Of a DNA stretch of 64,000 nt, positions 15,927-47,773 are shown piece by piece. The position numbers and the translations under genes were made by a program. Under the pieces are notes generated by a model, which was given only the letters and a program-made list of their open reading frames with translations, did not search any database and was not told the origin of the DNA. Within the stretch, counting starts at the first letter, position 1, and every line of letters begins with the position of its first letter. Location: NCBI RefSeq assembly GCF_053078305.1, contig NZ_CP166879.1; one strand, 5' to 3'.

Positions 15927-16090
15927 GGAAAAAGAAAAAAAATTCTGATCAGCACAAAATCGGGTGAAAACCCTGATTCACCTCACATTTCATCGCAATT
16001 TCTTCATCACCGTCATAAGCGAATCTGATTGTGCTACCATCGAAAATCTACGCAGTTGCCCAAAATTTGGGCGCAATCGGACATCAACCC

Positions 16091-17347: not shown

Positions 17348-17362
17348 TCCGGCGTTTCGACA

Positions 17363-18174: not shown

Positions 18175-19611
18175 ATGTCAAACAACATTCGTATCGAAGA
18201 AGATCTGTTGGGTACCAGGGAAGTTCCAGCTGATGCCTACTATGGTGTTCACACTCTGAGAGCGATTGAAAACTTCTATATCAGCAACAACAAAATCAGT
18301 GATATTCCTGAATTTGTTCGCGGTATGGTAATGGTTAAAAAAGCCGCAGCTATGGCAAACAAAGAGCTGCAAACCATTCCTAAAAGTGTAGCGAATGCCA
18401 TCATTGCCGCATGTGATGAAGTCCTGAACAACGGAAAATGCATGGATCAGTTCCCGGTAGACGTCTACCAGGGCGGCGCAGGTACTTCCGTAAACATGAA
18501 CACCAACGAAGTGCTGGCCAATATCGGTCTGGAACTGATGGGTCACCAGAAAGGTGAATATCAGTACCTGAACCCGAACGACCATGTTAACAAATGTCAG
18601 TCCACTAACGACGCCTACCCGACCGGTTTCCGTATCGCAGTTTACTCTTCCCTGATTAAGCTGGTAGATGCGATTAACCAACTGCGTGAAGGCTTTGAAC
18701 GTAAAGCTGTCGAATTCCAGGACATCCTGAAAATGGGTCGTACCCAGCTGCAGGACGCAGTACCGATGACCCTCGGTCAGGAATTCCGCGCTTTCAGCAT
18801 CCTGCTGAAAGAAGAAGTGAAAAACATCCAACGTACCGCTGAACTGCTGCTGGAAGTTAACCTTGGCGCAACAGCAATCGGTACTGGTCTGAACACGCCG
18901 AAAGAGTACTCTCCGCTGGCAGTGAAAAAACTGGCTGAAGTTACTGGCTTCCCATGCGTACCGGCTGAAGACCTGATCGAAGCGACCTCTGACTGCGGCG
19001 CTTATGTTATGGTTCACGGCGCGCTGAAACGCCTGGCTGTGAAGATGTCCAAAATCTGTAACGACCTGCGCTTGCTCTCTTCTGGTCCACGTGCCGGCCT
19101 GAACGAGATCAACCTGCCGGAACTGCAGGCGGGCTCTTCCATCATGCCAGCTAAAGTAAACCCGGTTGTTCCGGAAGTGGTTAACCAGGTATGCTTCAAA
19201 GTCATCGGTAACGACACCACTGTTACCATGGCAGCAGAAGCAGGTCAGCTGCAGTTGAACGTTATGGAGCCGGTCATTGGCCAGGCCATGTTCGAATCCG
19301 TTCACATTCTGACCAACGCTTGCTACAACCTGCTGGAAAAATGCATTAACGGCATCACTGCTAACAAAGAAGTGTGCGAAGGTTACGTTTACAACTCTAT
19401 CGGTATCGTTACTTACCTGAACCCGTTCATCGGTCACCACAACGGTGACATCGTGGGTAAAATCTGTGCCGAAACCGGTAAGAGTGTACGTGAAGTCGTT
19501 CTGGAACGCGGTCTGTTGACTGAAGCGGAACTTGACGATATTTTCTCCGTACAGAATCTGATGCACCCGGCTTACAAAGCAAAACGCTATACTGATGAAA
19601 GCGAACAGTAA
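18175..19611 (+). CDS. aspA: Aspartate ammonia-lyase AspA
   Basis: Start [18 protein letters not shown] (ATG 18175); fumarase/aspartase signature [12 protein letters not shown]; the track ORF from 18130 is an extension. Confidence 0.95.
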
Positions 19612-19636
19612 TCGTACAGGGTAGTACAAATAAAAA

Positions 19637-19665
19637 AGGCACGTCAGATGACGTGCCTTTTTTCT
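19637..19665. terminator. Rho-independent terminator after aspA
   Basis: AGGCACGTC-agat-GACGTGCCT hairpin flanked by an A run upstream and a T run downstream. Confidence 0.7.
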
Positions 19666-19728
19666 TGTGAGCAGTAACTTAAAAATAACAATCTAATATC
19701 AACTTGTTAAAAAACAAGGAAGGCTAAT

Positions 19729-21030
19729 ATGCTAGTTGTAGAACTCATCATAGTTTTGCTGGCGATCTTCTTGGGCGCCAGATTGGGGGGAATAGGTATT
19801 GGTTTTGCAGGCGGATTGGGGGTGCTGGTTCTTGCCGCTATTGGCGTTAAACCCGGTAACATCCCATTCGATGTCATTTCCATTATCATGGCGGTTATCG
19901 CCGCTATTTCTGCCATGCAGGTTGCTGGCGGTCTGGACTATCTGGTTCATCAGACAGAAAAGCTGCTGCGCCGTAACCCGAAATACATCACGATCCTCGC
20001 ACCGATCGTGACCTATTTCCTGACTATCTTTGCTGGTACTGGCAACATCTCTCTGGCGACACTGCCAGTTATCGCTGAAGTTGCGAAGGAACAAGGCGTT
20101 AAACCTTGCCGTCCGCTGTCTACTGCAGTGGTATCCGCGCAGATTGCGATCACCGCATCGCCAATCTCAGCGGCAGTGGTTTACATGTCTTCCGTGATGG
20201 AAGGTCATGGCATCAGCTACCTCCATCTGCTCTCCGTGGTCATCCCGTCCACCCTGCTGGCGGTTCTGGTGATGTCCTTCCTGGTCACTATGCTGTTCAA
20301 CTCCAAACTCTCTGACGATCCGATTTATCGCAAGCGTCTGGAAGAGGGCCTGGTTGAACTGCGCGGTGAAAAGCAGATTGAAATCAAATCCGGTGCAAAA
20401 ACGTCCGTCTGGCTGTTCCTGCTGGGCGTAGTTGGCGTGGTTATCTATGCAATCATCAACAGCCCAAGCATGGGTCTGGTTGAAAAACCGCTGATGAACA
20501 CCACCAACGCAATCCTGATCATCATGCTCAGCGTTGCAACTCTGACCACCGTTATCTGTAAAGTCGATACCGACAACATCCTCAACTCCAGCACCTTCAA
20601 AGCAGGTATGAGCGCCTGTATTTGTATCCTGGGTGTTGCGTGGCTGGGCGATACTTTCGTTTCCAACAACATCGACTGGATCAAAGATACCGCTGGTGAA
20701 GTGATTCAGGGTCATCCGTGGCTGCTGGCCGTCATCTTCTTCTTTGCTTCTGCTCTGCTGTACTCTCAGGCTGCAACCGCAAAAGCACTGATGCCGATGG
20801 CTCTGGCACTGAACGTTTCTCCGCTGACCGCTGTTGCTTCTTTCGCTGCGGTGTCTGGTCTGTTCATTCTGCCGACCTACCCGACGCTGGTTGCTGCGGT
20901 ACAGATGGATGACACGGGTACTACCCGTATCGGTAAATTCGTCTTCAACCATCCGTTCTTCATCCCGGGTACTCTGGGTGTTGCCCTGGCCGTTTGCTTC
21001 GGCTTCGTGCTGGGTAGCTTCATGCTGTAA
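19729..21030 (+). CDS. dcuA: Anaerobic C4-dicarboxylate transporter DcuA
   Basis: 433-aa multi-pass membrane protein, MLVVELIIVLLAIFLGARLGGIGIGFAGGLGVLVLA; aspA-dcuA arrangement. Confidence 0.95.
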   Translation: MLVVELIIVLLAIFLGARLGGIGIGFAGGLGVLVLAAIGVKPGNIPFDVISIIMAVIAAISAMQVAGGLDYLVHQTEKLLRRNPKYITILAPIVTYFLTIFAGTGNISLATLPVIAEVAKEQGVKPCRPLSTAVVSAQIAITASPISAAVVYMSSVMEGHGISYLHLLSVVIPSTLLAVLVMSFLVTMLFNSKLSDDPIYRKRLEEGLVELRGEKQIEIKSGAKTSVWLFLLGVVGVVIYAIINSPSMGLVEKPLMNTTNAILIIMLSVATLTTVICKVDTDNILNSSTFKAGMSACICILGVAWLGDTFVSNNIDWIKDTAGEVIQGHPWLLAVIFFFASALLYSQAATAKALMPMALALNVSPLTAVASFAAVSGLFILPTYPTLVAAVQMDDTGTTRIGKFVFNHPFFIPGTLGVALAVCFGFVLGSFML

Positions 21031-21039
21031 TGACCAATC

Positions 21040-21066
21040 GCGGGGCGTTCACGCCCCGCTTTCTTT
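21040..21066 (+). terminator. Rho-independent terminator after dcuA
   Basis: GCGGGGCG-ttca-CGCCCCGC followed by TTTCTTT. Confidence 0.65.
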
Positions 21067-21145
21067 CCCGCCGACTAACATCCTTCCCCCGTCCGTTGTA
21101 TAGTGACCTCTCTCTTGCGGTTCCATCTGTTCTTGCGAGGTGTTT

Positions 21146-21484
21146 ATGCTTGATGAAAAAAGTTCGAATACCGCGTCTGTCGTGGTGCTATGTACCGCAC
21201 CGGATGAAGCGACAGCCCAGGATTTAGCCGCCAAAGTGCTGGCGGAAAAACTGGCGGCCTGCGCGACCTTGATCCCCGGCGCTACCTCTCTCTATTACTG
21301 GGAAGGTAAGCTGGAGCAAGAATACGAAGTGCAGATGATTTTAAAAACTACCGTATCTCACCAGCAGGCACTGCTGGAATGCCTGAAGTCTCATCATCCA
21401 TATCAAACCCCGGAACTTCTGGTTTTACCTGTTACACACGGAGACACAGATTACCTCTCATGGCTCAACGCATCTTTACGCTGA
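21146..21484 (+). CDS. cutA: Divalent-cation tolerance protein CutA
   Basis: Start [32 protein letters not shown] (ATG 21146); 112 aa; overlaps the dsbD start. Confidence 0.9.
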
Positions 21485-23157
21485 TCCTGCTACTTTGCAG
21501 CACTTCCGTTTTTGCCGGATTATTCGACGCGCCGGGACGTTCACAATTTGTCCCCGCGGATCAAGCCTTTGCTTTTGATTTTCAGCAAAACCAACATGAC
21601 CTTAATCTGACCTGGCAGATCAAAGACGGTTACTACCTCTACCGTAAACAGATCCGCATTACGCCGGAACACGCGAAAATTGCCGACGTGCAGTTGCCGC
21701 AAGGCGTCTGGCATGAAGATGAGTTTTACGGCAAAAGCGAGATTTACCGCGATCGGCTGACGCTTCCCGTAACCATCAACCAGGCGAGTGCGGGAGCGAC
21801 GTTAACTGTCACCTACCAGGGCTGTGCTGATGCCGGTTTCTGTTATCCGCCAGAAACCAAAACCGTTCCGTTAAGCGAAGTGGTCGCCAACAACGCAGCG
21901 TCACAGCCTGTGTCTGTTCCGCAGCAAGAGCAGCACACCGCGCAATTGCCCTTTTCCGCGCTCTGGGCGTTGTTGATCGGTATTGGTATCGCCTTTACGC
22001 CATGCGTGCTGCCAATGTACCCACTGATTTCTGGCATCGTGCTGGGTGGTAAACAGCGGCTCTCCACTGCCAGAGCATTGTTGCTGACCTTTATTTATGT
22101 GCAGGGGATGGCTCTGACTTACACGGCGCTGGGTCTGGTAGTTGCCGCCGCAGGGTTACAGTTCCAGGCGGCGCTACAGCACCCATACGTGCTCATTGGC
22201 CTCGCCATCGTCTTTACCTTGCTGGCGATGTCAATGTTTGGCTTGTTTACTCTACAACTCCCCTCCTCGCTGCAAACGCGCCTCACGCTGATGAGCAATC
22301 GCCAACAGGGCGGCTCACCCGGCGGAGTGTTTATTATGGGGGCGATTGCCGGACTGATCTGTTCACCATGCACCACCGCACCGCTTAGCGCGATTCTGCT
22401 GTATATCGCCCAAAGCGGGAACATGTGGCTGGGCGGCGGCACGCTTTATCTCTATGCGTTGGGCATGGGCCTGCCGCTGATGCTAATTACCGTCTTTGGT
22501 AACCGCTTGCTGCCGAAAAGCGGCCCGTGGATGGAACAAGTCAAAACCGCGTTTGGTTTTGTGATCCTCGCACTGCCGGTCTTCCTGCTGGAGCGAGTGA
22601 TTGGTGATATATGGGGATTACGCTTGTGGTCGGCGCTGGGTGTCGCATTCTTTGGCTGGGCCTTTATCACCAGCCTACAGGCCAAACGCGGCTGGATGCG
22701 CGTGGTGCAAATAATCCTGCTTGCAGCGGCATTGGTTAGCGTGCGCCCACTTCAGGATTGGGCATTTGGTGCGACGCATACCGCGCAAACTCAGACGCAT
22801 CTCAACTTTACACAAATCAAAACGGTAGATGAGTTAAATCAGGCGCTCGTTGAAGCCAAAGGCAAACCGGTGATGTTAGATCTTTATGCCGACTGGTGCG
22901 TCGCCTGTAAAGAGTTTGAGAAATACACCTTCAGCGACCCGCAGGTGCAAAAAGCGTTAGCAGACACGGTCTTACTTCAGGCCAACGTCACGGCCAACGA
23001 CGCACAAGATGTGGCGCTGTTAAAGCATCTTAATGTCCTTGGCCTACCGACAATTCTCTTTTTTGACGGACAAGGCCAGGAGCATCCACAAGCACGCGTC
23101 ACGGGCTTTATGGATGCTGAAACCTTCAGCGCACATTTGCGCGATCGCCAACCGTGA
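21460..23157 (+). CDS. dsbD: Thiol:disulfide interchange protein DsbD
   Basis: Start [19 protein letters not shown] (ATG 21460); 565 aa; C-terminal thioredoxin CVAC motif ([16 protein letters not shown]); the track ORF from 21379 is an extension. Confidence 0.95.
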
Positions 23158-23193
23158 ACGACACTTGCAGTGGGAAAGACGGAGGAAAATAGC

Positions 23194-23769
23194 GTGCAAC
23201 GTGAAGATGTACTGGGAGAAGCCCTGAAATTATTAGAATTACAAGGGATTGCCAACACCACGCTGGAGATGGTTGCTGAACGTGTGGATTATCCACTGGA
23301 CGAGCTACGCCGCTTCTGGCCAGACAAAGAGGCAATCCTCTACGATGCGCTGCGTTATCTTAGCCAACAGATAGATATCTGGCGTCGTCAGCTGATGCTG
23401 GACGAAACGCAAACCGCCGAACAAAAGCTGCTGGCACGTTATCAGGCGTTATCGGAGTGCGTTAAAAACAACCGCTATCCGGGCTGTCTATTTATCGCTG
23501 CCTGTACGTTTTATCCCGATCCTGGCCACCCTATTCATCAACTGGCCGATCAGCAAAAAAGCGCGGCCTACGATTTCACCCACGAACTGTTAACCACGTT
23601 GGAAGTTGACGATCCGGCGATGGTAGCAAAGCAGATGGAACTGGTGCTGGAAGGCTGTTTAAGCCGAATGCTGGTAAATCGTAGCCAGGCGGATGTCGAC
23701 ACTGCACATCGGCTGGCGGAAGATATCCTGCGCTTCGCCCGCTGCCGCCAGGGTGGCGCATTGACCTGA
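23194..23769 (+). CDS. yjdC: TetR-family transcriptional regulator YjdC
   Basis: In-frame GTG at 23194 gives 191 aa ([31 protein letters not shown], helix-turn-helix N-terminus); the track start 23170 is also a GTG, so the start is uncertain by 8 codons. Confidence 0.8.
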
Positions 23770-23875
23770 CAGAAACACAGAAAAGAAGCGATTTGCCGCA
23801 ATCTTAAGCAGTTGAATCGCTTTTACTGAAATTAGGTTGACGAGATGTGCAGATTACGGTTTAATGCGCCCCGTT

Positions 23876-23951
23876 GCCCGGATAGCTCAGTCGGTAGAGC
23901 AGGGGATTGAAAATCCCCGTGTCGGTGGTTCGATTCCGCCTCCGGGCACCA
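23876..23951 (+). tRNA. pheU: tRNA-Phe (anticodon GAA), pheU-type locus
   Basis: 76 nt: GCCCGGA acceptor stem pairing with TCCGGGC, D-arm AGCTCAGTCGGTAGAGC, anticodon loop ATTGAAAAT (GAA), T-loop TTCGATT, 3' CCA; followed directly by an integrase gene. Confidence 0.95.
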
Positions 23952-24146
23952 TATACCAGAACACGCTGGTTAAGGGATGAGATCCTTGACGGGCGGTTAA
24001 TACAGGATGCGGCATCAAAGGGTCTCCGTTTGTGTAAGTTGTGGTTACACTGATTGAGTTCGGTATCGTATCCTCAAACAGGGTCTCTTTTGCAGAGACG
24101 CCCTGTTCTCGTTAACACTGTATGCTTACATTGCTGATTCAGCCTG

Positions 24147-25184
24147 TCAAGATTTATTCCCCCCTTTGCAAATCTTGCTCACTGTGCGCTCATCTGTATA
24201 CAAACTCAGGGCATCTTCCAGTGTCTGCGCTGCAGACTCCATACAGACATCAACATACCCCATGGTCGTTGTAAGACTCCTGTGTCCCAGTATGGATTTG
24301 ACCAGATGTAAATTACGTTCAGGATATTTCATCAGTCTGGTTGCCAGCGTATGTCTGAAACGATGTGGTGAAACAGGAAAACCACATTCTCGCGAAAGTC
24401 GCCGGAAAAATGAACGTACGGTCTGATGCGCCCGAACGGGACAGTACTGATATCTGTCGGCAGAGATCGGCTCACTGAAACGACAGACGTCAAAAAGATA
24501 GTCATCATCACCTGCCCCGCACTGACGGGCCCGCTCCAGCAGTTTTTCCATCGATACCTTCAGGGGAGCCACCAGAGGAACGCCCCATTCCCTGTGAGTT
24601 TTACTTCCCTCCAGCTTAAGATCAATTATGCTTTCATCCGGACAGACATCCCTCACACGGATATGCTTCAGTTGATTAAAGCGCATTCCGGTATAACGCA
24701 GAACATCCAGAACTGTCAGCCAGTACCAGGCAGGGTATATAGCATTGCGTCGACGACTATTCACCATGTTCTGCTCTTCCGCTTCTGCAAACCTCTGCAC
24801 AACCAGGTAAACCCTGAGCATCTGATTGTCACTCAGTGTCTTTTTCTTTTTTTCAGTACTCGCAACTGATGCTTCCACCAACGGGTTTTCTGTCTGAGGC
24901 AGCAGTTTCATCTTGATCCCGAATCCCATAATTGCCCGCAAGTGGGCCACCTTGTTATTCCAGGTCACCTCCCTGCGCTTCTGCTCTTTCAGGACATAAC
25001 GCCGGTATCGCTGAACATCACGGACAGTCACCTCCCCCGGCAAAATATCACCGATAAATTCCCTGAATACCCTGACAACTTTGCAGTAGCTCCACTCTGT
25101 ATCCGGCCGAAGATTCTTTGAAAAAAAGTACTCTTCCAGCAGTTGTTCCCAGGTGATTTTTGTGACGGAATCGTCATTCTGCAT
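24147..25184 (-). CDS. Tyrosine-type site-specific integrase (island integrase)
   Basis: Start MQNDDSVTKITWEQLL (ATG 25184); catalytic signatures TGMRFNQL, HRFRHTLATRL and LGHRSLTTTMGYV; adjacent to the tRNA 3' end. Confidence 0.85.
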   Translation of the reverse strand: MQNDDSVTKITWEQLLEEYFFSKNLRPDTEWSYCKVVRVFREFIGDILPGEVTVRDVQRYRRYVLKEQKRREVTWNNKVAHLRAIMGFGIKMKLLPQTENPLVEASVASTEKKKKTLSDNQMLRVYLVVQRFAEAEEQNMVNSRRRNAIYPAWYWLTVLDVLRYTGMRFNQLKHIRVRDVCPDESIIDLKLEGSKTHREWGVPLVAPLKVSMEKLLERARQCGAGDDDYLFDVCRFSEPISADRYQYCPVRAHQTVRSFFRRLSRECGFPVSPHRFRHTLATRLMKYPERNLHLVKSILGHRSLTTTMGYVDVCMESAAQTLEDALSLYTDERTVSKICKGGNKS

Positions 25185-25251
25185 TATATATTCCCCTTGT
25201 TTACTGTGCTCCCGCACTCTCCGGTCAAATTCTGCACATCATCGCCTTTAC

Positions 25252-26739
25252 TCACCCGAAAACAATAAGCGGGCTGTCTCCGGGAACCGTAATATTCCCG
25301 TACAGAAACCTGCCCTTAACCAGATATCCCGAAACCATTTTGTAACGTCCGGAATGTTCTGCGTCACTATAAAGACGGGCCTGAAAAAAACGCTCTCCTG
25401 AACGTACCTTATGGATACCTGCCCGTTCAAAGAGCGACTGAACATAACGACGATCCTGCCCGGAACCACTCTCCTTCAGAAAACGATAAAAAATCCCCGG
25501 GGCACACAGAAAAACATATCCGGAAACAACATGAACATTTGAATCAACGCTGTTAACCGAAAGTGAACCCTCCCTCAGCCCCTCTTTTAACCATCTGATA
25601 AATTCACTCTCTACCCTGCTATCCTCTGTCAGGGAAAACTCTGCCGTTTTTTCCACTGTTTCCGGGATACGGTTTCCCTGATTTTCTGTTACACATCCGC
25701 TCTCTTCCGGTAACTCAATACCGCTTTCTTTATCCGGCGGCACGCCTGACGCTATCTGCCCTCCCTCATCCGACAAATCAGCAGCAGAAAACAGCGTAAG
25801 GAGCATTCCGGTATCAGCATCAGTTTCGTTCCCCTCATCCACCTCCTGTTCCGCTGTCCGGCCCTCATTTTCGGCATCCTCCACTGGCGACTGTACAACC
25901 GGCAACGGCTGAATGACGCTTTCTGCTGAAATTGCTGCTGACTGCAGCAGTACCGGAACAACCTCAGCCACCGGAACTTCGGCCACATCTCCTGCAGCGA
26001 GGGGACTCACGACTTCCTCCATAGCTTCCTGTAATACTGTACGTATCAGTGCCATTTCAGGATGCTGATGCCAGACTGCTCCGGCAAGATTCTGTAATGC
26101 CCCCGGGACAGTGGCAAGCCAGGCTCCCGCCTCTCCGGGCAGCAGTTGTCCCGCCATCAGGGCTGCCAGTTGCCGTCCCTCCGTTCCCTGGCAGGGCATC
26201 TTCCTGAACCGGAACCGGTATACGCCCTCAGGTACAGATATCCCCGGCTGCCAGCATCTGCCGTCGGCCTGTTCGCCTTCCAGTTCCGCCAGCAACGGCA
26301 GGTGATAAAACAGAGCCGACCAGAACACCACCATGTTCCACACACTCCCCTGCGCGGCCTGCTCTTCTGCTGTCGCTCCCGGTGGAAACATTCTGCCTCT
26401 GGCCAGCCGGACAGCATACGTCGTGAACTGCAGGGTCAGGTCACCAAAACCACCGGTGTAACCCCAGCGACCTTCTGCTGTGGCCGGCAGATTCTGACTG
26501 ACAGACAACAACTGATGCACAGGATCAAGACAAAGGCGCTGATACATATCCACCGGCATGGAACTGTTTTCCCATAACTGTTTCAGACACCTTTTCCTGA
26601 ACGGTGTGGATACCAGTACATCAGCCGGCAATGGTGTAAAATACCCCTCCGGCACCGTTTCCCCGGGAATATCCGTCCGGACATCAGAACATTCTGTCTT
26701 CACAGGAAATAACCTTTTCAGGCGTTCAAGCATGCCCAT
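25252..26739 (-). CDS. Hypothetical protein (495 aa) with an acidic low-complexity central region; operon partner of the helicase
   Basis: Long ORF whose start overlaps the stop of the upstream helicase gene by 14 nt; no motif I can assign. Confidence 0.5.
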   Translation of the reverse strand: MGMLERLKRLFPVKTECSDVRTDIPGETVPEGYFTPLPADVLVSTPFRKRCLKQLWENSSMPVDMYQRLCLDPVHQLLSVSQNLPATAEGRWGYTGGFGDLTLQFTTYAVRLARGRMFPPGATAEEQAAQGSVWNMVVFWSALFYHLPLLAELEGEQADGRCWQPGISVPEGVYRFRFRKMPCQGTEGRQLAALMAGQLLPGEAGAWLATVPGALQNLAGAVWHQHPEMALIRTVLQEAMEEVVSPLAAGDVAEVPVAEVVPVLLQSAAISAESVIQPLPVVQSPVEDAENEGRTAEQEVDEGNETDADTGMLLTLFSAADLSDEGGQIASGVPPDKESGIELPEESGCVTENQGNRIPETVEKTAEFSLTEDSRVESEFIRWLKEGLREGSLSVNSVDSNVHVVSGYVFLCAPGIFYRFLKESGSGQDRRYVQSLFERAGIHKVRSGERFFQARLYSDAEHSGRYKMVSGYLVKGRFLYGNITVPGDSPLIVFG

Positions 26740-28216
26740 TCTCCTGAACCCGACCTGATGTGTCGTACCCGGTCCCCCGCAGACCTTCAGTTTTCTGCTG
26801 TTCTTCTGCCAGTTGGTGCATCAGGTCATTCAGTACCAGCGTCCTGAGGGCCCGGGTGACAGCCACATATAACAGACAGGTTTCATCATGACGCTCGGCC
26901 TCCGTCATCAGCGGAACCGTGATATCCTGGAAATCCTCATCCAGCATTACAACCGGCCACTCCAGCCCCTTGCTCCGGTGTGCCGTTGACACCGTGATAT
27001 CTGCATCCTGCTCATTCGTTACCGTATACTGCCGGAGAAGTTCCAGTTTTTTCGGTAACGGAAAACACAACTCCAGAAGCCGAAGGGACTGATTCATCTC
27101 CACATCCTTCGTGGATTTTGCAATATATTTATATTCTTCAAAATTCCTGTAGTCCCGGCGCAGCCTGTCTGAATGCATCCGTTCCGGCATATCAACCTGG
27201 AACCAGTAGAGATCCTCAAGTTCCCCGGTCCTGTAACCTTCGATTCCCCCCACCCAGTAAACCTTTTGCCCTTTCATTGCCGCCATCAGCGCAGTACCAA
27301 TCACACCCGCGACAGTACGACTGAGTACCGTGTAATGCCCCTGCAGATGTTCACGCGCATGGCATTTCAGCAATACCTCATCATCACCACCACAACCTTT
27401 CACCTCTCGTGTTTCACCTTCACGCTGCAGAAGCAGATTTGCCATACGAGCCACCGCCGGACCAAAACGGAAACTCTGTGTCAGCCACAACCGGTCCGCA
27501 TTCTTCAGTGCAGGATGGGAAAGCGCATTATTCGCACCCCGAAAGCGGTAAATCTGTTGATAACAATCTCCAACAAGGACCACCCGACACTTCTGCCCCA
27601 GAACCAGAGCAGTGGTCACCGGATTCGCATCCTGCGCCTCATCAAACAGGATGGTGTCCCATCGGTGAGACAGGTCTGCACCGGACAACTGGAAGAGTTT
27701 CAGATAAGTATCGTGCGTCACCGGGAACGTCCCCCCGGGGTTGCTCATTTCGTTCCAGAGCAACTGCACCGCCCGAAGCGCATCTGCTGGCGGAACACCC
27801 CGCATCTCATCCTTATCCGGCAGGTGATGCAGGCCCGGTACCGCATCAGCAGAACAGATAAAATGATTCAGCCCCGTCCCTGCCACCCGTGCCAGAGCCC
27901 AGTATCGTGTATTCAGCTTTCTCGCCACATCAGTAATACGTAATCCCGGAACCAGCCGATGACGGTAGTGTCTTCCAACCCGGGCATACGCCAGCTGATG
28001 TGACGTTCTGCATTCCACGTTAAAGGGAAATTTACGCTCTGCCTCATCACGTATTGCCCGGTTATAGGCAAGATAGAGCATACGGCTGTCCGGACTGGCC
28101 CGGGCAAACTGCACCAGCGTACTCGTCTTCCCTGTGCCGGAAAACGCATTCACAACCAGTTGCTGCCCCTGCCAGTTAATAATGGCGTACTGTTCATCTG
28201 TGGGATTAAAAGACAT
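26726..28216 (-). CDS. UvrD/Rep-like superfamily 1 DNA helicase
   Basis: Start MSFNPTDEQYAIINWQ (ATG 28216); Walker A GTGKTS, motif II FDEAQD, C-terminal VAVTRA-type motif. Confidence 0.8.
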   Translation of the reverse strand: MSFNPTDEQYAIINWQGQQLVVNAFSGTGKTSTLVQFARASPDSRMLYLAYNRAIRDEAERKFPFNVECRTSHQLAYARVGRHYRHRLVPGLRITDVARKLNTRYWALARVAGTGLNHFICSADAVPGLHHLPDKDEMRGVPPADALRAVQLLWNEMSNPGGTFPVTHDTYLKLFQLSGADLSHRWDTILFDEAQDANPVTTALVLGQKCRVVLVGDCYQQIYRFRGANNALSHPALKNADRLWLTQSFRFGPAVARMANLLLQREGETREVKGCGGDDEVLLKCHAREHLQGHYTVLSRTVAGVIGTALMAAMKGQKVYWVGGIEGYRTGELEDLYWFQVDMPERMHSDRLRRDYRNFEEYKYIAKSTKDVEMNQSLRLLELCFPLPKKLELLRQYTVTNEQDADITVSTAHRSKGLEWPVVMLDEDFQDITVPLMTEAERHDETCLLYVAVTRALRTLVLNDLMHQLAEEQQKTEGLRGTGYDTSGRVQENGHA

Positions 28217-28447
28217 GTATTCTCTTCTCCGGAAAAACATTTCCGTAATCTGATGCATCAGGGGTATGCCCACCACAAATAACTCTGTACAGCAACAGAA
28301 AAATTTCCCTGGTCATATGATGAATTAATCATCGCCATCACACCGGATGCTTCTCATCCTGTCCTCAGAAAGACAGGTGGTCTCCTGTCTGCCGCGCTTA
28401 TCCAGGATACCGGGACCTGAAAGGTCATAATCTGGCAGGAAAAAATA

Positions 28448-30124
28448 ATGTCCGAAGTAAAAAAACACGTTTCTTATTCATTAACAGTTGCAGCTATGCT
28501 GTCAGCCGCCATCGTCTGTCAGACAGCACATGCTGATATCAACACACCGAACATCACCGGAGAAAAAAACAATACAACAACACGATTCTCCGGAAATATT
28601 TACGGCAGTGAAAATACTGTCACATCAGAGTCAAACAGTCTGGTTGTGGGTAACAGTAATTCCGTGGAGGGAGGGTATAACAACATTGTTATTGGTAATT
28701 CCTCCACGGTCAAAGCTTCCGGTTTGATCAGAAAAGTGGGCGAAGATATTGTGCTGGATGGTTACAGCGTCAGCCTCGGTAATGCCACCAGAATTAACGG
28801 TGATTCATCTGTTGCCATAGGTCTGACATCGTCCGTAACCGGGAACGACTCCGTGGCACTGGGCAGTCATTCCAGTGCTAACGGAAACAATATCGTATCC
28901 GTCGGCTCTGACACACTGAAACGCCGCATCACAAATCTGGCACAGGGGAAAGATGACCATGATGCGGTAAATCTGATGCAGATGACCAGTGCTGTTAACC
29001 GGGAAGCTGGAGAAAGAATAAAATCAACAAACAACCTGCAGAATCAGCTTAATACCCTCTCTGGTCAGGTCATAACTGAAACCAGGGCCCGAACAGAAGG
29101 TGATGCAGCAGCGCTGGCTGCAGCCAGAGCCCACAGCGATGAAAACGACAAAAGAACACTGGTCAGTGCGAATACCTATGCTGACCAGAAAGAAACCGCC
29201 ATCAATAACCGTACTGACGGATTACTGACGACCGAACGCCAGGCACGCACCGCAGGCGATACTGCAACTCTGGCTGCTGCCAGAACGCACAGCGATGAAA
29301 ACAACAAAAGAACACTGATCAGTGCGAATACCTATGCTGACCAGAAAGAAACCGCCATCAATAACCGTACTGACGGATTACTGGCTACAGAACGCCAGGC
29401 ACGCACCGCAGGCGATACTGCAACTCTGGCTGCTGCCAGAACGCACAGCGATGAAAACAACAAAAGAACACTGGTCAGTGCGAATACTTATGCTGACCAG
29501 AAAGAAACCGACATCAATAACCGTACTGACGGATTACTGGCTACAGAACGCCAGGCACGCACCGCAGGCGATACTGCAACTCTGGCTGCTGCCAGAACGC
29601 ACAGCGATGAAAACAACAAAAGAACACTGATCAGTGCGAATACCTATGCTGACCAGAAAGAAACCGCCATCAATAACCGTACTGACGGATTACTGACGAC
29701 CGAACGCCAGGCACGCATCGCAGGTGATGCCGCAACTCTGGCAACAGCAGCGGCATACAGTGACGCCGGGGATTCACTGACACTGAAACAGGCAACAGCC
29801 TACAGCGATATCAGTACCCGCCGGGCACTGTCAGAGGCCAATCGTTATACCGACAACAAATTCAGAAACCTGAGCAATAAAATTGAACGGGCAGAAAAAA
29901 GACTTAATGCAGGCATCGCCGGAGTGACAGCAATATCCTCCATCCCCTATGTGGCTGAAAATTCTTTTTCATACGGGATCGGCGTGGGTAACTATCAGAA
30001 CGCTAATGCTGTGGCCGCAGGCATTCAGTATAAAACATCACGTAATACCAATATACGCCTCAACATCTCCTGGGACTCATCTCATAACACCGCGATTGGT
30101 GCAGGGGTTGCCGGCGGCTGGTAA
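28448..30124 (+). CDS. Trimeric autotransporter adhesin (YadA-like; Eib/Saa-like size class)
   Basis: Signal peptide (AAMLSAAIVCQTAHA); head repeats (NSVEGGYNNIVIGNSS, SVAIGLTSSVTGNDSVALG); coiled-coil stalk with tandem repeats; C-terminal YadA anchor ending NISWDSSHNTAIGAGVAGGW. Confidence 0.8.
   Translation: MSEVKKHVSYSLTVAAMLSAAIVCQTAHADINTPNITGEKNNTTTRFSGNIYGSENTVTSESNSLVVGNSNSVEGGYNNIVIGNSSTVKASGLIRKVGEDIVLDGYSVSLGNATRINGDSSVAIGLTSSVTGNDSVALGSHSSANGNNIVSVGSDTLKRRITNLAQGKDDHDAVNLMQMTSAVNREAGERIKSTNNLQNQLNTLSGQVITETRARTEGDAAALAAARAHSDENDKRTLVSANTYADQKETAINNRTDGLLTTERQARTAGDTATLAAARTHSDENNKRTLISANTYADQKETAINNRTDGLLATERQARTAGDTATLAAARTHSDENNKRTLVSANTYADQKETDINNRTDGLLATERQARTAGDTATLAAARTHSDENNKRTLISANTYADQKETAINNRTDGLLTTERQARIAGDAATLATAAAYSDAGDSLTLKQATAYSDISTRRALSEANRYTDNKFRNLSNKIERAEKRLNAGIAGVTAISSIPYVAENSFSYGIGVGNYQNANAVAAGIQYKTSRNTNIRLNISWDSSHNTAIGAGVAGGW
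29132..29755 (+). repeat. Four tandem copies of a 156-bp (52-codon) in-frame repeat inside the adhesin stalk
   Basis: Unit starts at 29132, 29288, 29444 and 29600 (CACAGCGATGAAAAC...), near-identical; encodes HSDENNKRTL(V/I)SANTYADQKETAINNRTDGLL(T/A)TERQARTAGDTATLAAART. Confidence 0.9.
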
Positions 30125-34751: not shown

Positions 34752-34893
34752 ATATACAGAACCAGCTTTGTCTACATACCCGGAATTCAGTAAAGAAACA
34801 TAATCTATAAGACTTACTCACTTTAACAAAACAACATTCCTGGATAAAATAATATCCGATGAAATAATCTCCGCATAAATACATGAGGCTGCC

Positions 34894-35118
34894 ATGACAC
34901 GCAACGCAACGCAACGCAACGCAACGCAACGCAACGCAACGCAACGCAACGCAACGCAACGCAACGCAACGCAACGCAACGCAACGCAACGCAACGCAAC
35001 GCAACAATATGCTCGCCTGAACTCTCTCCGTCAAGTACCTCTACCTCCGTGCTTTCTGGAGGTACTGTATGAATATACGCAACAATCATCTACCGGGAAC
35101 AGAAACTCTTTTTTCTGA
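34894..35118 (+). CDS. Candidate leader ORF containing the pentanucleotide tract and overlapping the mod start
   Basis: ATG 34894 preceded by GAGG (34885-34888); reads MT(RNATQ)x7 through the repeat and ends at 35118, 50 nt beyond the mod ATG; coding status unproven. Confidence 0.35.
   Translation: MTRNATQRNATQRNATQRNATQRNATQRNATQRNATQQYARLNSLRQVPLPPCFLEVLYEYTQQSSTGNRNSFF
34899..35005 (+). repeat. Perfect pentanucleotide simple-sequence repeat (GCAAC)21
   Basis: 21 uninterrupted GCAAC units at 34901-35005 (tract with partial unit starts 34899), ending 63 bp upstream of the mod ATG. Confidence 0.97.
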
Positions 35119-37105
35119 AACTGAAACTGCGAACAGTAAACAACTTGCTGTTTTGAAAACTAACTTTCCACAGTGTTTCGATAAAAACGGAGCTTTCATT
35201 CAGGAAAAGCTGCTTGAGATCATCAGAGCATCAAATGTTGAAATCTCTAAAGAGTCATACTGCTTAAACTGGCTTGGCAAATCCTATGCTCGCCTGCTGG
35301 CTAACCTACCACCAACGACATTGCTGTCAGAAGATAAAGACCATAACCGACGTGAAGAGAACAAGAACAGTCAAAATCTGTTAATCAAAGGGGATAACCT
35401 TGAGGTATTAAAGCATATGGTTAATGCTTATTCTGAAAAGGTTAAAATGATTTATATCGATCCGCCATATAACACGGGTTCTGATGGGTTCGCCTATAAT
35501 GATGATCGCAAATTTACACCAGAACAGCTTTCTGATCTGGCGGGTATCGATCTTGATGAGGCTAAACGTATACTTGAATTTACCACGAATGGTTCAAGCA
35601 GCCATAGCGCATGGTTAACGTTCATTTATCCTCGTTTATATATTGCTCGTGAGCTTCTACGTGAAGATGGTGTGATATTTATTTCGATTGACGAAAATGA
35701 ATTAAATCAACTTAAAACTATTTGTGATGAAATTTTTGGCGAAGCAAATTTCATAGAAAATATTGTATGGAATAAACGTATCCCTAAAAATGATAAGGGT
35801 ATTGGTAATATCCATGAGTACATCCTTGCTTATGCGAAGAATAACGAAATAAGTAAAGAATTTTTAATGCGGAAAGATGGTATTGATGATGTATATCAGT
35901 TTATTGAAAAGTTAAAAAAGGAAAAGGTGCCATTAGATAAAGCAGAGCAGCAACTCAAAAAATTCTACAGCTCCAACGGATATGATCGTGGAATTACTCT
36001 TTACAACGGTTTGAACGAGGATTATAGGCCATGGGGTAAAATTAATATGAGTTGGCCTAATGCAGATTCATTTGGACCCACGTATGAAGTATTGCACCCT
36101 TTGACTAATAACCCTGTCAAAATCCCAGACAGAGGCTGGCGTTGGAAAGAAGGCACTTTTAATCATATTGCAAAAAGAATAGATGGAAAGTATGCAGATA
36201 TCAAAAAACTACATGATGGTAGCGTTATTTGTGGTGGAATTTGGTTTGCCCGTACAGAAAAAACCCAACCCAGTTCGGTTAAATTTTTAGATGAAGTTGA
36301 AGAGTTTTTACTAAGATCAATTATTTCAACTAAAAGTGATGGTGGTGTTGAGGTTGAAAATCTTTTTGGTGGGAAAGGATATTTCTCCTACCCGAAGCCA
36401 ACAAGTTTAATAAAAACACTATTTGGTTCAGTAAGAACCGAAGATAAAGACATTTATCTTGACTTTTTTGCTGGCTCTGGAACTACAGCTCATGGTATTC
36501 TGGAGTTAAATATTGAAGACGGCAGGAAAAGAAACTTCATCTGTGTTCAATTAGATGAAGAAACAGATAAAAAGAAACAAGCCTATAAAGAAGGGTATAA
36601 ATCCATCTTCAATATAACAAAAGACAGAATTATTAAGGCAGGAAAAAAGCTGAAAAAAGATAATCCTAATTATAATGGAGATTTGGGATTTAAAATATTT
36701 GAAACAGTTCATGATTTTCGAGCGAAAGATGAGTCTGAACTTACGCTTTCTAATCTTAGTTTCTTTGACGATGCTGTATTGACACCAGAGCAGTATGACA
36801 CTCTATTGACGACATGGTGCGTGTATGATGGCAGCTTGCTAACAACACCAATTGAAGATATTGACCTTAATGGCTACAAAGCACACTTGTGCGATGGTCG
36901 GCTATATCTAATTGCGCCTAATTTCACAAGTGAGGCTTTGAAAGCTTTACTTCAAAAGCTGGATGCAGACAAAGACTTTGCCCCTAACAAAGTTGTATTT
37001 TATGGCAGCAACTTCGAAAGTGCGAAACAGATGGAACTCAATGAAGCACTAAAAAGTTATGCTAATAAAAAATCTATTGATTTAGATTTGGTGGTAAGGA
37101 ACTAA
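35069..37105 (+). CDS. mod: Type III restriction-modification methyltransferase Mod (N6-adenine)
   Basis: 678 aa; GGAGG Shine-Dalgarno at 35058-35062; motif IV IYIDPPYNTG, motif I FFAGSGTTAHG; followed 2 bp later by res. Confidence 0.9.
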   Translation: MNIRNNHLPGTETLFSETETANSKQLAVLKTNFPQCFDKNGAFIQEKLLEIIRASNVEISKESYCLNWLGKSYARLLANLPPTTLLSEDKDHNRREENKNSQNLLIKGDNLEVLKHMVNAYSEKVKMIYIDPPYNTGSDGFAYNDDRKFTPEQLSDLAGIDLDEAKRILEFTTNGSSSHSAWLTFIYPRLYIARELLREDGVIFISIDENELNQLKTICDEIFGEANFIENIVWNKRIPKNDKGIGNIHEYILAYAKNNEISKEFLMRKDGIDDVYQFIEKLKKEKVPLDKAEQQLKKFYSSNGYDRGITLYNGLNEDYRPWGKINMSWPNADSFGPTYEVLHPLTNNPVKIPDRGWRWKEGTFNHIAKRIDGKYADIKKLHDGSVICGGIWFARTEKTQPSSVKFLDEVEEFLLRSIISTKSDGGVEVENLFGGKGYFSYPKPTSLIKTLFGSVRTEDKDIYLDFFAGSGTTAHGILELNIEDGRKRNFICVQLDEETDKKKQAYKEGYKSIFNITKDRIIKAGKKLKKDNPNYNGDLGFKIFETVHDFRAKDESELTLSNLSFFDDAVLTPEQYDTLLTTWCVYDGSLLTTPIEDIDLNGYKAHLCDGRLYLIAPNFTSEALKALLQKLDADKDFAPNKVVFYGSNFESAKQMELNEALKSYANKKSIDLDLVVRN

Positions 37106-37107: not shown

Positions 37108-40020
37108 ATGTCTAAAGGGTTCACATTCGAAAAAAATTTACCTCATCAAAAGGCTGGCGTTGATTCGGTAATGAATGTCTTTGTATCCGCCATACCTCAT
37201 CAGACGGATCATGTTGCAATTCGCCTGTTAGCTAATCCAGAACTGAATCTATCTGAACAACAATACTACAACAACATAAAAAATGTTCAGGAGTTCAATG
37301 GTATTGAGCACTCAAAAGATAATTACGATGCTAAAAGCAACGTAATTGATGTTTCTATGGAGACAGGTACAGGTAAAACTTATACTTACACCAAAACAAT
37401 TTTTGACCTGAACAAATCATTTGGTATTAACAAATTTATCATCATTGTTCCTACCCTATCGATCAAAGCCGGAACCGTTAACTTTTTAAAAAGCGATGCT
37501 ATAAAAGAACACTTTCGAGATGATTACGAGCGTGAACTAAAGACTTACGTTGTTGAAAGTCAGAAAAGTTCGGGTAAAAATACAAAATCGTATATGCCTC
37601 AAGCTATCCATGATTTTGTTGAAGCAAGTAATTTCAATAAGAAATATATACACATTCTTGTGATCAACTCAGGGATGATTAACTCTAAGTCTTTAACTGA
37701 CACTTATGATGTTGGCTTGCTTGATAATCAGTTTGATACCCCATTTTCTGCACTTAGTGCGATAAAACCATTCATTATCATTGATGAGCCTCATAAATTT
37801 CCTACTGGTAAAAAGACATGGGAACATATTCAAAAATTTAATGCCCAATATATCATCCGCTATGGCGCAACCTTTAGTGAAGGCTATAAGAACTTAGTTT
37901 ATCGTCTTACAGCCGTAGATGCCTTCAATGAAGATCTTGTTAAAGGTATTGATGCATACATTGAGGATATAGTTGGTGATGGTAATGCCAACCTCAAGTT
38001 GGTCAAATCTGACGGAAAAGAAGCTACATTTGAACTGAACGAAAATAATAATAAAAAAATTTTTAAGTTAGCCAAAGGTGAATCACTATCTAAGACGCAT
38101 AGTGCGATCCATGATTTAACTCTTGATGCTTTAAATAAGAATACAGCAGTGTTGAGTAATGGTATTGAGCTAAAAATTGGTAGTTCGATAAACCCCTATT
38201 CTTACGATCAGACACTTGCTGATAACATGATGCGTAAAGCTGTCAAAGAACACTTTAAGTTAGAAAAAGAGTATCTGACACAAAGGCCACGCATAAAACC
38301 TCTTACTCTTTTCTTCATTGATGACATTGAAGGCTATCGTGATGGTAATGATATTGCAGGAAGCCTGAAAACTAAGTTCGAAGAATACGTTTTGGCAGAA
38401 GCAAATGAACTGTTAAAAACAGAGAAAGATGAGTTTTACAGAAACTACCTTGAAAAAACTGTTAAGGATATATCTTCTGTTCATGGTGGTTATTTTTCAA
38501 AAGATAATAGTGATAAAGATGATAAAATTGAGCAGGAAATCAACGAAATCCTTCATGATAAAGAGCTTCTATTGTCTTTAGAAAATCCTCGCCGTTTCAT
38601 TTTCTCTAAATGGACGTTGCGTGAGGGATGGGATAACCCAAATGTCTTTCAGATTTGTAAGCTCCGTTCGAGCGGTAGCACCACATCTAAACTTCAGGAG
38701 GTAGGGCGTGGTTTACGTCTTCCAGTGAATGAATACATGTGCCGTGTGAAAAACCGCGATTTTACTCTCAACTATTATGTTGATTTTACGGAAAAAGATT
38801 TTGTTGATTCTCTTGTAAAAGAGGTTAATGATAGTTCTTTCAAAGAAACTGTTCCAGGTAAGTTTACTCAAGAACTTAAGGATAAAATCTTATCTCAGTA
38901 TCCTGAGCTTTCATCCAGAACACTCATGAATGAGATCTTTGATGCTGAAATTATTGATGATAATGAAAACTTCAAAGATTCCGATGCCTATAGCCGTTTA
39001 AAAGCAAAATATCCGGCTGCATTCCCTACCGGGGTGAAACCAACAAAAATAAAAAAAGCCACGGATGGAAAAAAGCGTACTAAAATGCGTATTGGTAAGT
39101 TCAGTGAGTTGAAAGAACTATGGGATTTGATCAATCAAAAAGTAGTAATTGAGTATAAAATAAATAGTGAAAATGAATTCTTATCCATTTTCAAATCATT
39201 CATGATTGAAGAAACAGATAGATTTACTAAATCAGGTGTTCATACTCGCATTGATAGAATTTATATTCATAATGATACGGCGATGTCGAAAAGTATCGTC
39301 AGTGACGATGATAACTTTGCTAAACTAAACACAATGAGCTATCGGGAATTTCTTGATAACTTATCACAAACTATTTTTGCTAAACACGATACCTTACATA
39401 AGGTTTTTTGTGATATAAAAGACACTATCAATATCACCGACTACCTGAACATTCAGACAATCAGAAAGATTAAATCTGGGTTTAGCAAGTATTTGTTGAA
39501 CAATTCATTTAACAAATTCAGCCTTGGATATAATGTAATTTCAGGCTCAATTCATCCTACAAAATTCACTAATGCAGACGGTAATCACCTGCATGAGGTA
39601 TTATCAGGTGATCTTGGAGTATTACAGGATAATACAAAAGCCCCCCTAGACTCTTATCTTTTTGAAGAAGTTTTTTATGATTCAGAGCTTGAAAGACTCA
39701 ATATAACAGACGGAGAGATCCACTCTGTTGCTGTTTTTACAAAGATACCGAAAAACTCAATTAAAATTCCAGTGGCAGGTGGATACACATATTCTCCTGA
39801 CTTTGCTTATGTTGTAAAAACAACAAAGGGTGACTACCTTAACTTTATTATTGAAACAAAAAATGTCGAAGGTAAAGAAAGTTTACGTAAAGAAGAACTG
39901 GATAAAATAAAGCATGCACAAAAACTTTTCGAACAGGTAAGTAAATCTGTAAAAGTAACTTTTATAACTCAATTCTCAGGTGACAGAATCCATGATCTGA
40001 TAAAAAATGTGATTCAGTAA
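37108..40020 (+). CDS. res: Type III restriction enzyme Res subunit (SF2 helicase-like ATPase/nuclease)
   Basis: 970 aa; Walker A TGTGKTYT, DEAH-like IIIDEPHKF; tightly coupled to mod. Confidence 0.9.
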   Translation: MSKGFTFEKNLPHQKAGVDSVMNVFVSAIPHQTDHVAIRLLANPELNLSEQQYYNNIKNVQEFNGIEHSKDNYDAKSNVIDVSMETGTGKTYTYTKTIFDLNKSFGINKFIIIVPTLSIKAGTVNFLKSDAIKEHFRDDYERELKTYVVESQKSSGKNTKSYMPQAIHDFVEASNFNKKYIHILVINSGMINSKSLTDTYDVGLLDNQFDTPFSALSAIKPFIIIDEPHKFPTGKKTWEHIQKFNAQYIIRYGATFSEGYKNLVYRLTAVDAFNEDLVKGIDAYIEDIVGDGNANLKLVKSDGKEATFELNENNNKKIFKLAKGESLSKTHSAIHDLTLDALNKNTAVLSNGIELKIGSSINPYSYDQTLADNMMRKAVKEHFKLEKEYLTQRPRIKPLTLFFIDDIEGYRDGNDIAGSLKTKFEEYVLAEANELLKTEKDEFYRNYLEKTVKDISSVHGGYFSKDNSDKDDKIEQEINEILHDKELLLSLENPRRFIFSKWTLREGWDNPNVFQICKLRSSGSTTSKLQEVGRGLRLPVNEYMCRVKNRDFTLNYYVDFTEKDFVDSLVKEVNDSSFKETVPGKFTQELKDKILSQYPELSSRTLMNEIFDAEIIDDNENFKDSDAYSRLKAKYPAAFPTGVKPTKIKKATDGKKRTKMRIGKFSELKELWDLINQKVVIEYKINSENEFLSIFKSFMIEETDRFTKSGVHTRIDRIYIHNDTAMSKSIVSDDDNFAKLNTMSYREFLDNLSQTIFAKHDTLHKVFCDIKDTINITDYLNIQTIRKIKSGFSKYLLNNSFNKFSLGYNVISGSIHPTKFTNADGNHLHEVLSGDLGVLQDNTKAPLDSYLFEEVFYDSELERLNITDGEIHSVAVFTKIPKNSIKIPVAGGYTYSPDFAYVVKTTKGDYLNFIIETKNVEGKESLRKEELDKIKHAQKLFEQVSKSVKVTFITQFSGDRIHDLIKNVIQ

Positions 40021-47515: not shown

Positions 47516-47773
47516 AGGTGGGCAGATTTACCACCACCAGAAACATCCTGGCTGCACATCCCCTTTCAGGTTACGGGGGTGTTGATCACCCGAAGGCGTT
47601 CCTCTCAGATCAACGGAACATTGGTGCCCACCGAAGCGGGATGTGGTCACCCGAAGGCGCTCCTCTCAGACCACTTATGGAGCATTGGTGGTCGCCGAAG
47701 CGACATGTAGCCACCCGAAGGCGCTCCTCTCAGGCCACTTGTGGAGCATTGGTGGTCGCCGGAGCGACATATA
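47449..47773. repeat. Direct repeat copy 1 (about 325 bp) with three degenerate tandem ~63-bp sub-units
   Basis: Near-identical to 49782-50038 over about 255 bp; sub-units begin CACCCGAAGGCG(C/T)TCCTCTCAG at about 47584, 47647 and 47711. Confidence 0.9.

Follow-up and report, generated by a model that had tools for sequence, protein, structure and literature searches.

A pentanucleotide repeat in a putative leader open reading frame upstream of an operon for Type III restriction-modification in Escherichia coli

How can a simple-sequence repeat (SSR) switch a gene whose coding sequence it leaves untouched? This question is raised by a restriction-modification (R-M) operon of Type III, mod-res, in a stretch of 64,000 nucleotides (nt) of Escherichia coli DNA (contig NZ_CP166879.1 of assembly GCF_053078305.1; the whole stretch is referred to below as the window), in which a perfect pentanucleotide tract, (GCAAC)21, lies upstream of the methyltransferase gene mod and inside a separate small open reading frame (ORF), the leader ORF. 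We have high confidence that the locus is hypermutable and acts as a contingency switch for the Type III R-M operon, which is carried by a mobile island. As to how the length of the tract is read out, translation of the leader ORF is the best-supported mechanism, in which we place moderate confidence.

Tract, leader ORF and allelic variation

The mod gene (35069-37105, plus strand) is an intact ORF for a Type III N6-adenine DNA methyltransferase of 678 amino acids (aa), whose residues 12-678 match residues 4-644 of the EcoP15I Mod protein (PDB 4zcf_A, 800 bits), and which is recognized by PADLOC as MTase_III (775 bits) and by the Pfam families N6_N4_Mtase and T3RM_EcoP15I_C. The res gene (37108-40020, plus strand), likewise intact, begins 2 nt past the mod stop and encodes a Type III restriction endonuclease of 970 aa (NCBIfam NF012027, 1073 bits where the cut-off is 564; PADLOC REase_III, 1610 bits). 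Together, these genes constitute an EcoP15I-like Type III R-M system. The (GCAAC)21 tract, a hypermutable element on the same strand, occupies positions 34901-35005 by direct reading; Tandem Repeats Finder reports it as a period-5 array at 34899-35005 with 21.4 copies, 100% matches and a score of 214. The runner-up short-period array in the window scores 58, and the GCAAC tract is the sole long microsatellite there. A perfect pentanucleotide array of 105 nt is far beyond chance.

The leader ORF begins at ATG 34894, preceded at a distance of 5 nt by the Shine-Dalgarno (SD) sequence GAGG (34885-34888, plus strand). At the present number of units, n = 21, it comprises 74 codons (34894-35118), starting with MTR(NATQR)n, and ends at TGA 35116-35118, 47 nt inside mod. 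The mod gene has an SD sequence of its own, GGAGG (35058-35062, plus strand), and a gap of 63 nt separates the tract from the mod ATG. Stop codons are impossible within the tract in all frames, and, because the leader ATG lies 7 nt from the tract and the unit measures 5 nt, the value of n modulo 3 fixes the frame in which a translating ribosome would leave it. Exit frame +0 (n = 1 mod 3) leads to an early stop, TGA 35018-35020, 51 nt before the mod ATG; frame +1 (n = 2 mod 3) leads to TGA 35070-35072, which overlaps the mod ATG as ATGA (35069-35072); and frame +2 (n = 0 mod 3, the present state) leads to TGA 35116-35118. The coordinates of the tract, of the leader SD, ATG and stop, and of the mod SD and ATG that a first-pass annotation of this DNA had reported were all confirmed by reading the sequence, and so was its description of a stop-free tract with three termination sites, ATGA included, selected by n modulo 3. 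Its interpretation of the arrangement as three states of translational coupling holds for the anatomy, that is, for the leader ORF, the three stops and the ATGA overlap; that the three states would give three expression levels is a prediction.

A classical in-ORF design, in which mod would extend back into the tract, was also considered and rejected. TGA 35018, the early stop, lies in the frame of mod, thus the leader cannot continue into mod, and the alignment with EcoP15I Mod begins at residue 12 of Mod.

The length of the tract differs between strains. Loci with an identical Mod protein carry n = 21, 15 and 14 units, and short-read contigs end inside the tract. A second allele (allele 2, as opposed to allele 1 of the window), which is approximately 88% identical from the tract onward, was found in 8 of 5,426 complete E. 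coli genomes, where it has 13, 19, 25, 25, 29 (with one variant unit), 30, 33 and 47 units; again, n differs under the same Mod accession (13, 25, 29 and 33 under one, 30 and 47 under another). The eight genomes are CP182371 (13 units), CP027340 (19), CP033635 and CP128970 (25 each), CP172185 (29), CP172127 (30), CP158308 (33) and CP126926 (47). The E. coli loci are distributed over all frame states: four have the early stop, three have the ATGA overlap (including a 14-unit allele 1 in a draft assembly, locus L006) and four read through. A long perfect repeat, the number of whose units differs between strains with near-identical flanks, is what characterizes an SSR contingency locus, and the E. 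coli locus has these properties. A tract of invariant length across relatives, which the first-pass annotation had named as an argument against switching, is not what we observe, given the range of 13-47 units between near-identical flanks.

Allele 2 retains the signals around the tract. Despite an otherwise diverged upstream flank, it keeps GAGGCT followed by ATG and the 7-nt offset between this ATG and the tract. Its early stop is TAA instead of TGA and stands at the identical codon after the tract, within a 16-nt block that is only 37% identical. The ATGA overlap, the stop at +47 and a hairpin at the mod SD (see below) are kept as well, with a tract-mod gap of 57 nt.

In the draft locus L006 (positions 1300-1440, GCA_026420665.1), which belongs to allele 1, the leader SD is mutated to GAGT, an early TAA is present, and a second start, ATGAAAC, occurs in repeat-like sequence ahead of the 14 units; this leader could be decayed or recombined, or it could be an artefact of short-read assembly. 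Repeat-less relatives of mod-res in E. coli and on plasmids have an ORF of 94-121 aa that sits 11-17 nt before mod: the 121-aa ORF is found in E. coli LF82 (locus L004, 5616-5978) and the 94-aa ORF at 1191-1478 in loci L150 and L151. The plasmids that host the repeat-less relatives are linear replicons of 40-45 kb from Klebsiella, Salmonella and related genera, and the search of plasmids recovered just such relatives with the 94-aa ORF upstream of mod. The exact tract-flank junction pattern, GCAACGCAACGCAACGCAACAATATGC, had no matches in a search of one genome per species, and the E. coli-type flank is rare and absent among species representatives. The phage collection contained no match to the locus. 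A scan of metagenomes for (GCAAC)3 followed by GGAGG and ATG gave 29 matches, nearly all of them chance occurrences at n = 3, and one allele-2 contig, also with n = 3, that is probably a collapsed assembly.

Predicted read-out of the tract by leader translation

A sigma-70 promoter for leader-mod-res, TTAACA-16-TAAAAT, was predicted by a consensus scan at 34823-34850 on the plus strand (10 of 12 matches); transcription from it would be expected to begin some 35-40 nt upstream of the leader ATG. In allele 2, the sequence TTCAGA-17-TAGAAT is aligned at the position of this promoter. Given these aligned predictions, the leader SD and ATG would be within the mRNA. At the other end of the gap, the minimum-free-energy fold contains a hairpin with a 10-bp stem (35034-35066, plus strand) in which the mod SD is paired: AGUACCUCUA (35034-35043) or a duplicate copy, UACCUCC (35042-35048), forms the 5' arm, and the 3' arm, UGGAGGUACU (35057-35066), holds GGAGG. 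For the SD window, the computed probability of being unpaired is 0.14, which is below 98.5% of shuffled-upstream controls; allele 2 forms a 9-bp SD stem with a probability of 0.12, below 96.5% of such controls. In the fold, the early stop precedes the hairpin by about 14 nt, hence a ribosome terminating there would halt just short of the hairpin, while the other two frames would cross it, which is the classical geometry of translational coupling. By their sequence, the leader and mod have the features of a putative coupled pair, namely a leader with its own SD and start, an ATGA overlap, and a downstream SD in a hairpin that the leader would traverse. The tract RNA itself is predicted to be unstructured (z = +3.05), and a comparison of the leader with Rfam found no known RNA family.

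In the proposed mechanism, a promoter approximately 45-70 nt upstream of the leader ATG would give an mRNA on which the leader SD and ATG are followed by the repeat, the gap and mod-res. Ribosomes would initiate at ATG 34894 and always traverse the stop-free repeat, and slipped-strand gain or loss of 5-nt units would shift the reading frame in which they leave it. At n = 1 mod 3 they would halt at 35018, before the SD hairpin, and mod would be poorly translated (OFF or low), the untranslated mRNA probably being lost too via polarity or decay. At n = 2 mod 3 the hairpin would be melted and termination would occur on ATGA, ideally placed for reinitiation (ON). In the present state (n = 0 mod 3), ribosomes would cross the hairpin and run 47 nt into mod, with an output that is probably ON or intermediate. 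Since Res needs Mod for DNA recognition and res begins 2 nt after mod, the R-M activity would vary between cells. We infer that the leader is transcribed and translated in E. coli, and we likewise infer which states are ON and how res is affected. The present 21-unit state probably expresses mod, by analogy with Bibersteinia trehalosi, in which a leader that stops past the mod ATG corresponds to an active methylase.

The gap between the tract and mod holds another candidate signal. The consensus scan found a promoter-like pair on the minus strand, TTGACG-17-CATATT (TTGACG at 35034-35029 and CATATT at 35011-35006; 9 of 12 matches), which is directed towards the tract, and both hexamers and their 17-nt spacing are kept in allele 2, with a diverged spacer that includes the block with the early stop. 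If this were a genuine promoter, it would transcribe the repeat in antisense, and the target of the repeat could be the antisense RNA or the divergent gene upstream, with no role for the leader ORF. We consider this very improbable, because the region has no excess of promoter-like sites (3 seen against 1.7 +/- 1.6 expected), the leftward neighbours differ between the alleles (a 166-aa ORF in the window, an IS3 fragment and another gene in allele 2), no counterpart was seen by eye in the gaps of Moraxella and Bibersteinia, and the right-hand hexamer is within sequence already explained by the hairpin region. The pair may be coincidental.

Tracts of the same unit were identified in many other genomes. 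(GCAAC)6 occurs in at least 120 species-representative genomes, and among the 120 matches listed a Mod homologue stands beside the tract at four loci. In Acinetobacter, the GCAAC tract is inside mod, in the classical in-ORF design. In Moraxella catarrhalis Z7574, B. trehalosi and Rodentibacter caecimuris, an SD and ATG, 2-4 codons and (GCAAC)n form a leader before a homologous mod (the M. catarrhalis Mod is 45.5% identical over 635 aa by tblastn). In these three leaders, two frames stop early, and the remaining one terminates either on ATGA or some 10 nt beyond the mod ATG. The tract-mod gap of R. caecimuris measures 67 nt, and those of M. catarrhalis and B. trehalosi are shorter (41-42 nt). 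The E. coli locus has the same layout as M. catarrhalis modO and B. trehalosi Btr192II, that is, a sense GCAAC tract 40-70 nt upstream of a homologous mod. An SD and ATG no more than 16 nt upstream of the tract are found at all eight leader loci, as compared with a background of 2.3%. Among the matches listed, an SD and ATG lie near the tract in 27 of 111 cases in the GCAAC orientation and in 2 of 111 in the reverse orientation, and this orientation specificity indicates that GCAAC tracts are characteristically translated from a start just upstream. These 27 tracts, again among the matches listed, include eight of the in-ORF and eight of the leader type, the latter thus being as common as the former, ten that run off a contig end, and one that is neither.

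The leader design also precedes an EcoRI-type methyltransferase gene (Pfam PF13651) in Spirabiliibacterium, a similar gene being found in another Pasteurellaceae genome, and it stands ahead of several unannotated genes. At four loci from Pasteurellaceae and Moraxella (L127, L093, L130 and L064), TTGACA is followed, after a spacer of exactly 17 nt in which AAGGA occurs, by a -10-like hexamer overlapping the leader ATG; this is either a shared promoter-leader cassette or a promoter that excludes the leader ATG from the mRNA. Two further loci, L070 from a Clostridia bacterium and L060 from a Capnocytophaga metagenome-assembled genome, have an SD, ATG and (GCAAC)n followed by a GC-rich hairpin and a T-run before the gene, and their terminator-like gaps suggest an attenuator-type read-out of frame gating. 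A conserved gene for a 5-methylcytosine (m5C) DNA methyltransferase (TIGR00675; 249 bits for the gonococcal protein) is preceded in Neisseria gonorrhoeae (L075), R. caecimuris (L092) and A. seminis (L100) by long tracts in the GTTGC orientation, located 69-71 nt upstream, with one frame ending 8 nt past the methyltransferase ATG; the L100 tracts are broken by a poly-A run.

Published phenotypes of two homologues can be compared with what the leader frames predict. In B. trehalosi, the Type III mod of Btr192II has (CGCAA)n 43 bp upstream. [quoted passage not shown] In our comparison, the sequences of strains 192 and 188 do not differ between -330 and +12 with respect to the leader ATG or between -48 and +300 with respect to the mod ATG. 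The 46-codon leader of strain 192 ends 10 nt past the mod ATG, that of strain 188 ends 24 nt before it, and the 14-unit leader stops early; the natural tract range in the species is 8-19 units. The frame model retrodicts the methylomes of the isogenic strains 188, 189 and 192. A helical-phase promoter model with a 10-bp period was rejected, as it predicts 15 and 17 units to behave alike and the isogenic B. trehalosi strains differ. As a side observation, strain 190 (locus L141, CP006956) differs from strain 192 by two acrB coding substitutions, a variant unit at the tract end and substitutions inside mod.

For M. catarrhalis modO (McaC031IP), which has 5'-(CAACG)n upstream of the ORF, a transcriptional action was hypothesised by the authors; modO mRNA in strain ATCC 23246 amounted to 1.0 with 9 repeats, to 20.7 with 10 and to 1.75 with 11, strains carry 12-33 repeats, and length variation inside cultures was shown experimentally (PMC6241649, PMC7302503). 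The response is non-monotonic with an approximately 20-fold peak at 10 repeats, as expected of a frame effect.

The same data could be read as a switch that depends on the length of the tract at the level of transcription or RNA, through promoter geometry, factor binding, Rho loading or processing of the 5'-untranslated region (5'-UTR). Such control was proposed in print for modO, where the 20-fold effect is seen in mRNA, and a single optimal length is compatible with B. trehalosi (15 units ON; 14 and 17 OFF). Moreover, the tract RNA is unstructured, with more C than G, and hence resembles a Rho utilization (rut) site, the possible TTGACA-17-hexamer promoter abuts the tract at four non-E. coli loci, and repeats in a 5'-UTR act in Haemophilus influenzae hmw, with a similar upstream repeat in M. 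catarrhalis uspA2. However, a tract of 65-235 bp cannot fit a -35/-10 spacer, and in E. coli both the predicted promoter and the conserved SD and ATG are upstream of it. The non-monotonic series of 9, 10 and 11 repeats in modO and 14, 15 and 17 in B. trehalosi oppose a graded effect, the contrast of 15 and 17 units opposes helical phasing, and a single optimum is ill-suited to tracts whose natural lengths extend over 13-47 units in E. coli and over 8-19 in B. trehalosi. An SD and ATG that accompany the tract in one orientation (27 of 111 against 2 of 111 among the matches listed) are likewise not what a purely length-dependent switch calls for. A change in mRNA would be expected anyway upon loss of translation; polarity after lost translation is established for siaD of Neisseria meningitidis. 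Overall, we regard a length-dependent switch as unlikely, though less so than the other alternatives.

Another alternative is a neutral relic, in which a nonsense mutation severed the N-terminal extension of an ancestral phase-variable mod of the in-ORF type and mod is now constitutive from its own SD and ATG, the tract length being inconsequential. Consistent with it, the early-stop frame is the mod frame with a single stop between the tract and the mod ATG, mod has a strong GGAGG SD at good spacing, the frame layout is no better than chance, and an in-ORF form with the GCAAC repeat exists in Acinetobacter. However, the split arrangement is kept in at least four genera and in two E. coli alleles, with the stop at the same codon in a diverged block; neutral tracts decay, whereas these are maintained as long perfect arrays with just isolated variant units; two homologous systems show activity or mRNA that varies with n; and the mod SD is sequestered. 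We consider the relic improbable.

Several observations weigh against read-out by leader translation. The transcription start in E. coli is a predicted one, obtained by consensus, and the switch there is predicted from sequence. The three-frame layout of stops is no better than chance: compared with dinucleotide-shuffled gaps it gives no signal, as at least one frame reaches the mod start in 91-94% of the shuffles of this gap (91-100% over all the shuffles) and two frames do so in 37-51%, and, since shuffled gaps mostly reach the mod start, the layout is not counted as evidence. With the hairpin's 5' arm made unavailable in silico, the mod SD is predicted to re-pair with mod codons at 35083-35093, and for this reason thermodynamics by itself is no proof of unmasking. 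The hairpin is, moreover, weak or absent in Bibersteinia and absent in Rodentibacter. The 15-unit leader of B. trehalosi strain 190 reaches mod and has no mutation in the leader, SD or promoter that explains its silence. On the flanks of M. catarrhalis Z7574 the ON frame would be n = 2 mod 3, yet modO is reported as ON at 10 repeats. The reported modO amplicons of 157, 162 and 167 bp correspond to 112+5n, whereas the Z7574 flanks give 110+5n, and, with two extra nt in strain 23246, the ATGA frame would fall at n = 1 mod 3 and thus at 10 repeats. Finally, if the TTGACA-17-hexamer is a promoter, the leader ATG would be outside the mRNA at the four loci that have it.

Genomic setting of the R-M operon

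The flank at 16000-23900, which includes dsbD, aspA, dcuA and adjoining genes, matches complete E. coli genomes at 99.7% identity. It is followed by a tRNA-Phe gene (23876-23951), downstream of which are encoded a tyrosine recombinase (24147-25217, minus strand), a relaxase of the PFGI-1 class of integrative and conjugative elements (ICE) (25252-26739, minus strand) and, beyond these two and still within 23876-28276, a UvrD-like helicase. This succession of a tRNA gene, recombinase, ICE relaxase and helicase places the R-M locus on an integrative island, which is possibly conjugative and carries the switch. The E. coli locus is present in avian-pathogenic and Shiga-toxin strains.

Other features of the region were recorded. 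Allele-2 loci adjoin genes for an integrase, TraF, and DUF1281 and LPD29 proteins. The island in the window also carries a gene for a YadA-like trimeric autotransporter adhesin (28448-30124) with four copies of a 156-bp unit at 29114-29742 (95% matches), which could encode a length-variable stalk. A 64-bp tandem repeat of 2.9 copies with 86% matches was found at 47587-47770.

Significance and comparison with known systems

Phase-variable Type III methyltransferases reprogramme methylomes, forming the regulatory systems known as phasevarions, and switch phage defence on and off. We tentatively propose, as a possibility that falls short of even confidence, a general and hitherto unnoticed class of 'frame-gated leaders', with the E. 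coli locus as one example, in which an SSR lies in a short translated leader that has no other meaning and the exit frame gates a downstream gene whose protein is unaltered; such leaders may act via an SD hairpin, termination-reinitiation or a terminator, and from the loci described above they may precede Type III, EcoRI-type and possibly m5C methyltransferase genes. If the proposal is true, a frame-gated leader explains both the control of modO that was assumed to be transcriptional and the silencing in B. trehalosi that was untied to gene content, and in E. coli the output could take three levels instead of ON and OFF. Leader-type loci have been missed because catalogues search for repeats inside annotated mod ORFs; a search rule that would capture them is an SD and ATG, a repeat, stops in some frames, and a separate start. 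For engineering, the design would offer a compact stochastic switch with three states and no change to the protein that it regulates.

In E. coli, contingency loci driven by repeats are rare. The sole reported phase-variable Type III mod of this species, M.Eco131I from E. coli strains that produce Shiga toxin (STEC), has an in-ORF CAGCGAC(n) repeat (PMC5909438); the locus described here would be a second, independent system, and phase variation of an E. coli Type III mod is not new in itself. The first-pass annotation overstated the novelty of a repeat placed ahead of the gene, since a repeat upstream of a Type III mod has been published for modO and Btr192II; what neither publication proposes is a leader ORF. 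In the literature that we searched, we found neither a description of this E. coli locus nor one of a leader ORF that carries an SSR and is coupled to a methyltransferase.

The classical phasevarion mods, such as modA, modB and modD of H. influenzae and Neisseria, modM of M. catarrhalis and modH of Helicobacter pylori, likewise rely on slipped-strand mispairing of a 5'-proximal SSR, with a start codon just before the tract and a tract length that differs between strains. In these genes, the repeat forms part of the mod ORF, a frameshift leaves a truncated Mod, and there are two outcomes. The E. coli locus, in contrast, has a stop and a separate SD and ATG between the tract and mod, the Mod sequence is constant, and three outcomes are possible; it is not a classical in-ORF phasevarion mod. 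A parallel in concept is the lex2A/lex2B pair of H. influenzae, in which a GCAA tetranucleotide repeat is located in a small upstream ORF and the glycosyltransferase is encoded by the downstream gene. The lex2 literature describes the SSR in lex2A and the enzyme as Lex2B. The two loci share a repeat in an upstream ORF; the genes are unrelated, and the unit of lex2A is a tetranucleotide.

In known cases of translational coupling (ATGA and TGATG overlaps, MS2 coat-replicase, ribosomal protein operons; PMC6728339, PMC12548453), the upstream ORF ends near the downstream start, and the downstream SD is held in a hairpin that is crossed by the upstream ORF, as would be the case at the E. coli locus. 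The upstream frame in these systems is fixed, whereas in E. coli a mutable repeat would pick among three termination sites.

The nearest relatives are modO and Btr192II. The modO gene resembles the E. coli locus in the repeat unit and its orientation (CAACG being GCAAC rotated), in an EcoP15I-like Mod, in an SD and ATG 7 nt before the tract and, in M. catarrhalis Z7574, in one leader frame that overlaps the mod start as ATGA. In contrast to E. coli, where two frames reach mod, only one does so in modO; the SD of modO pairs with mod codons and has no hairpin with an upstream arm, and the host family is different. Its authors describe a tract upstream of the ORF with transcriptional action and do not mention a leader ORF (PMC6241649, PMC7302503). 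Btr192II and Btr190II (group C) share with E. coli the repeat, a homologous mod-res and an SD and ATG leader; unlike in E. coli, the reaching frame of Btr192II ends 10 nt past the mod ATG without an ATGA overlap, and the SD hairpin is weak or missing. Thus, the E. coli locus is homologous in design to modO and Btr192II and differs from them by the SD hairpin and by two frames that reach mod, the combination that makes three output states possible.

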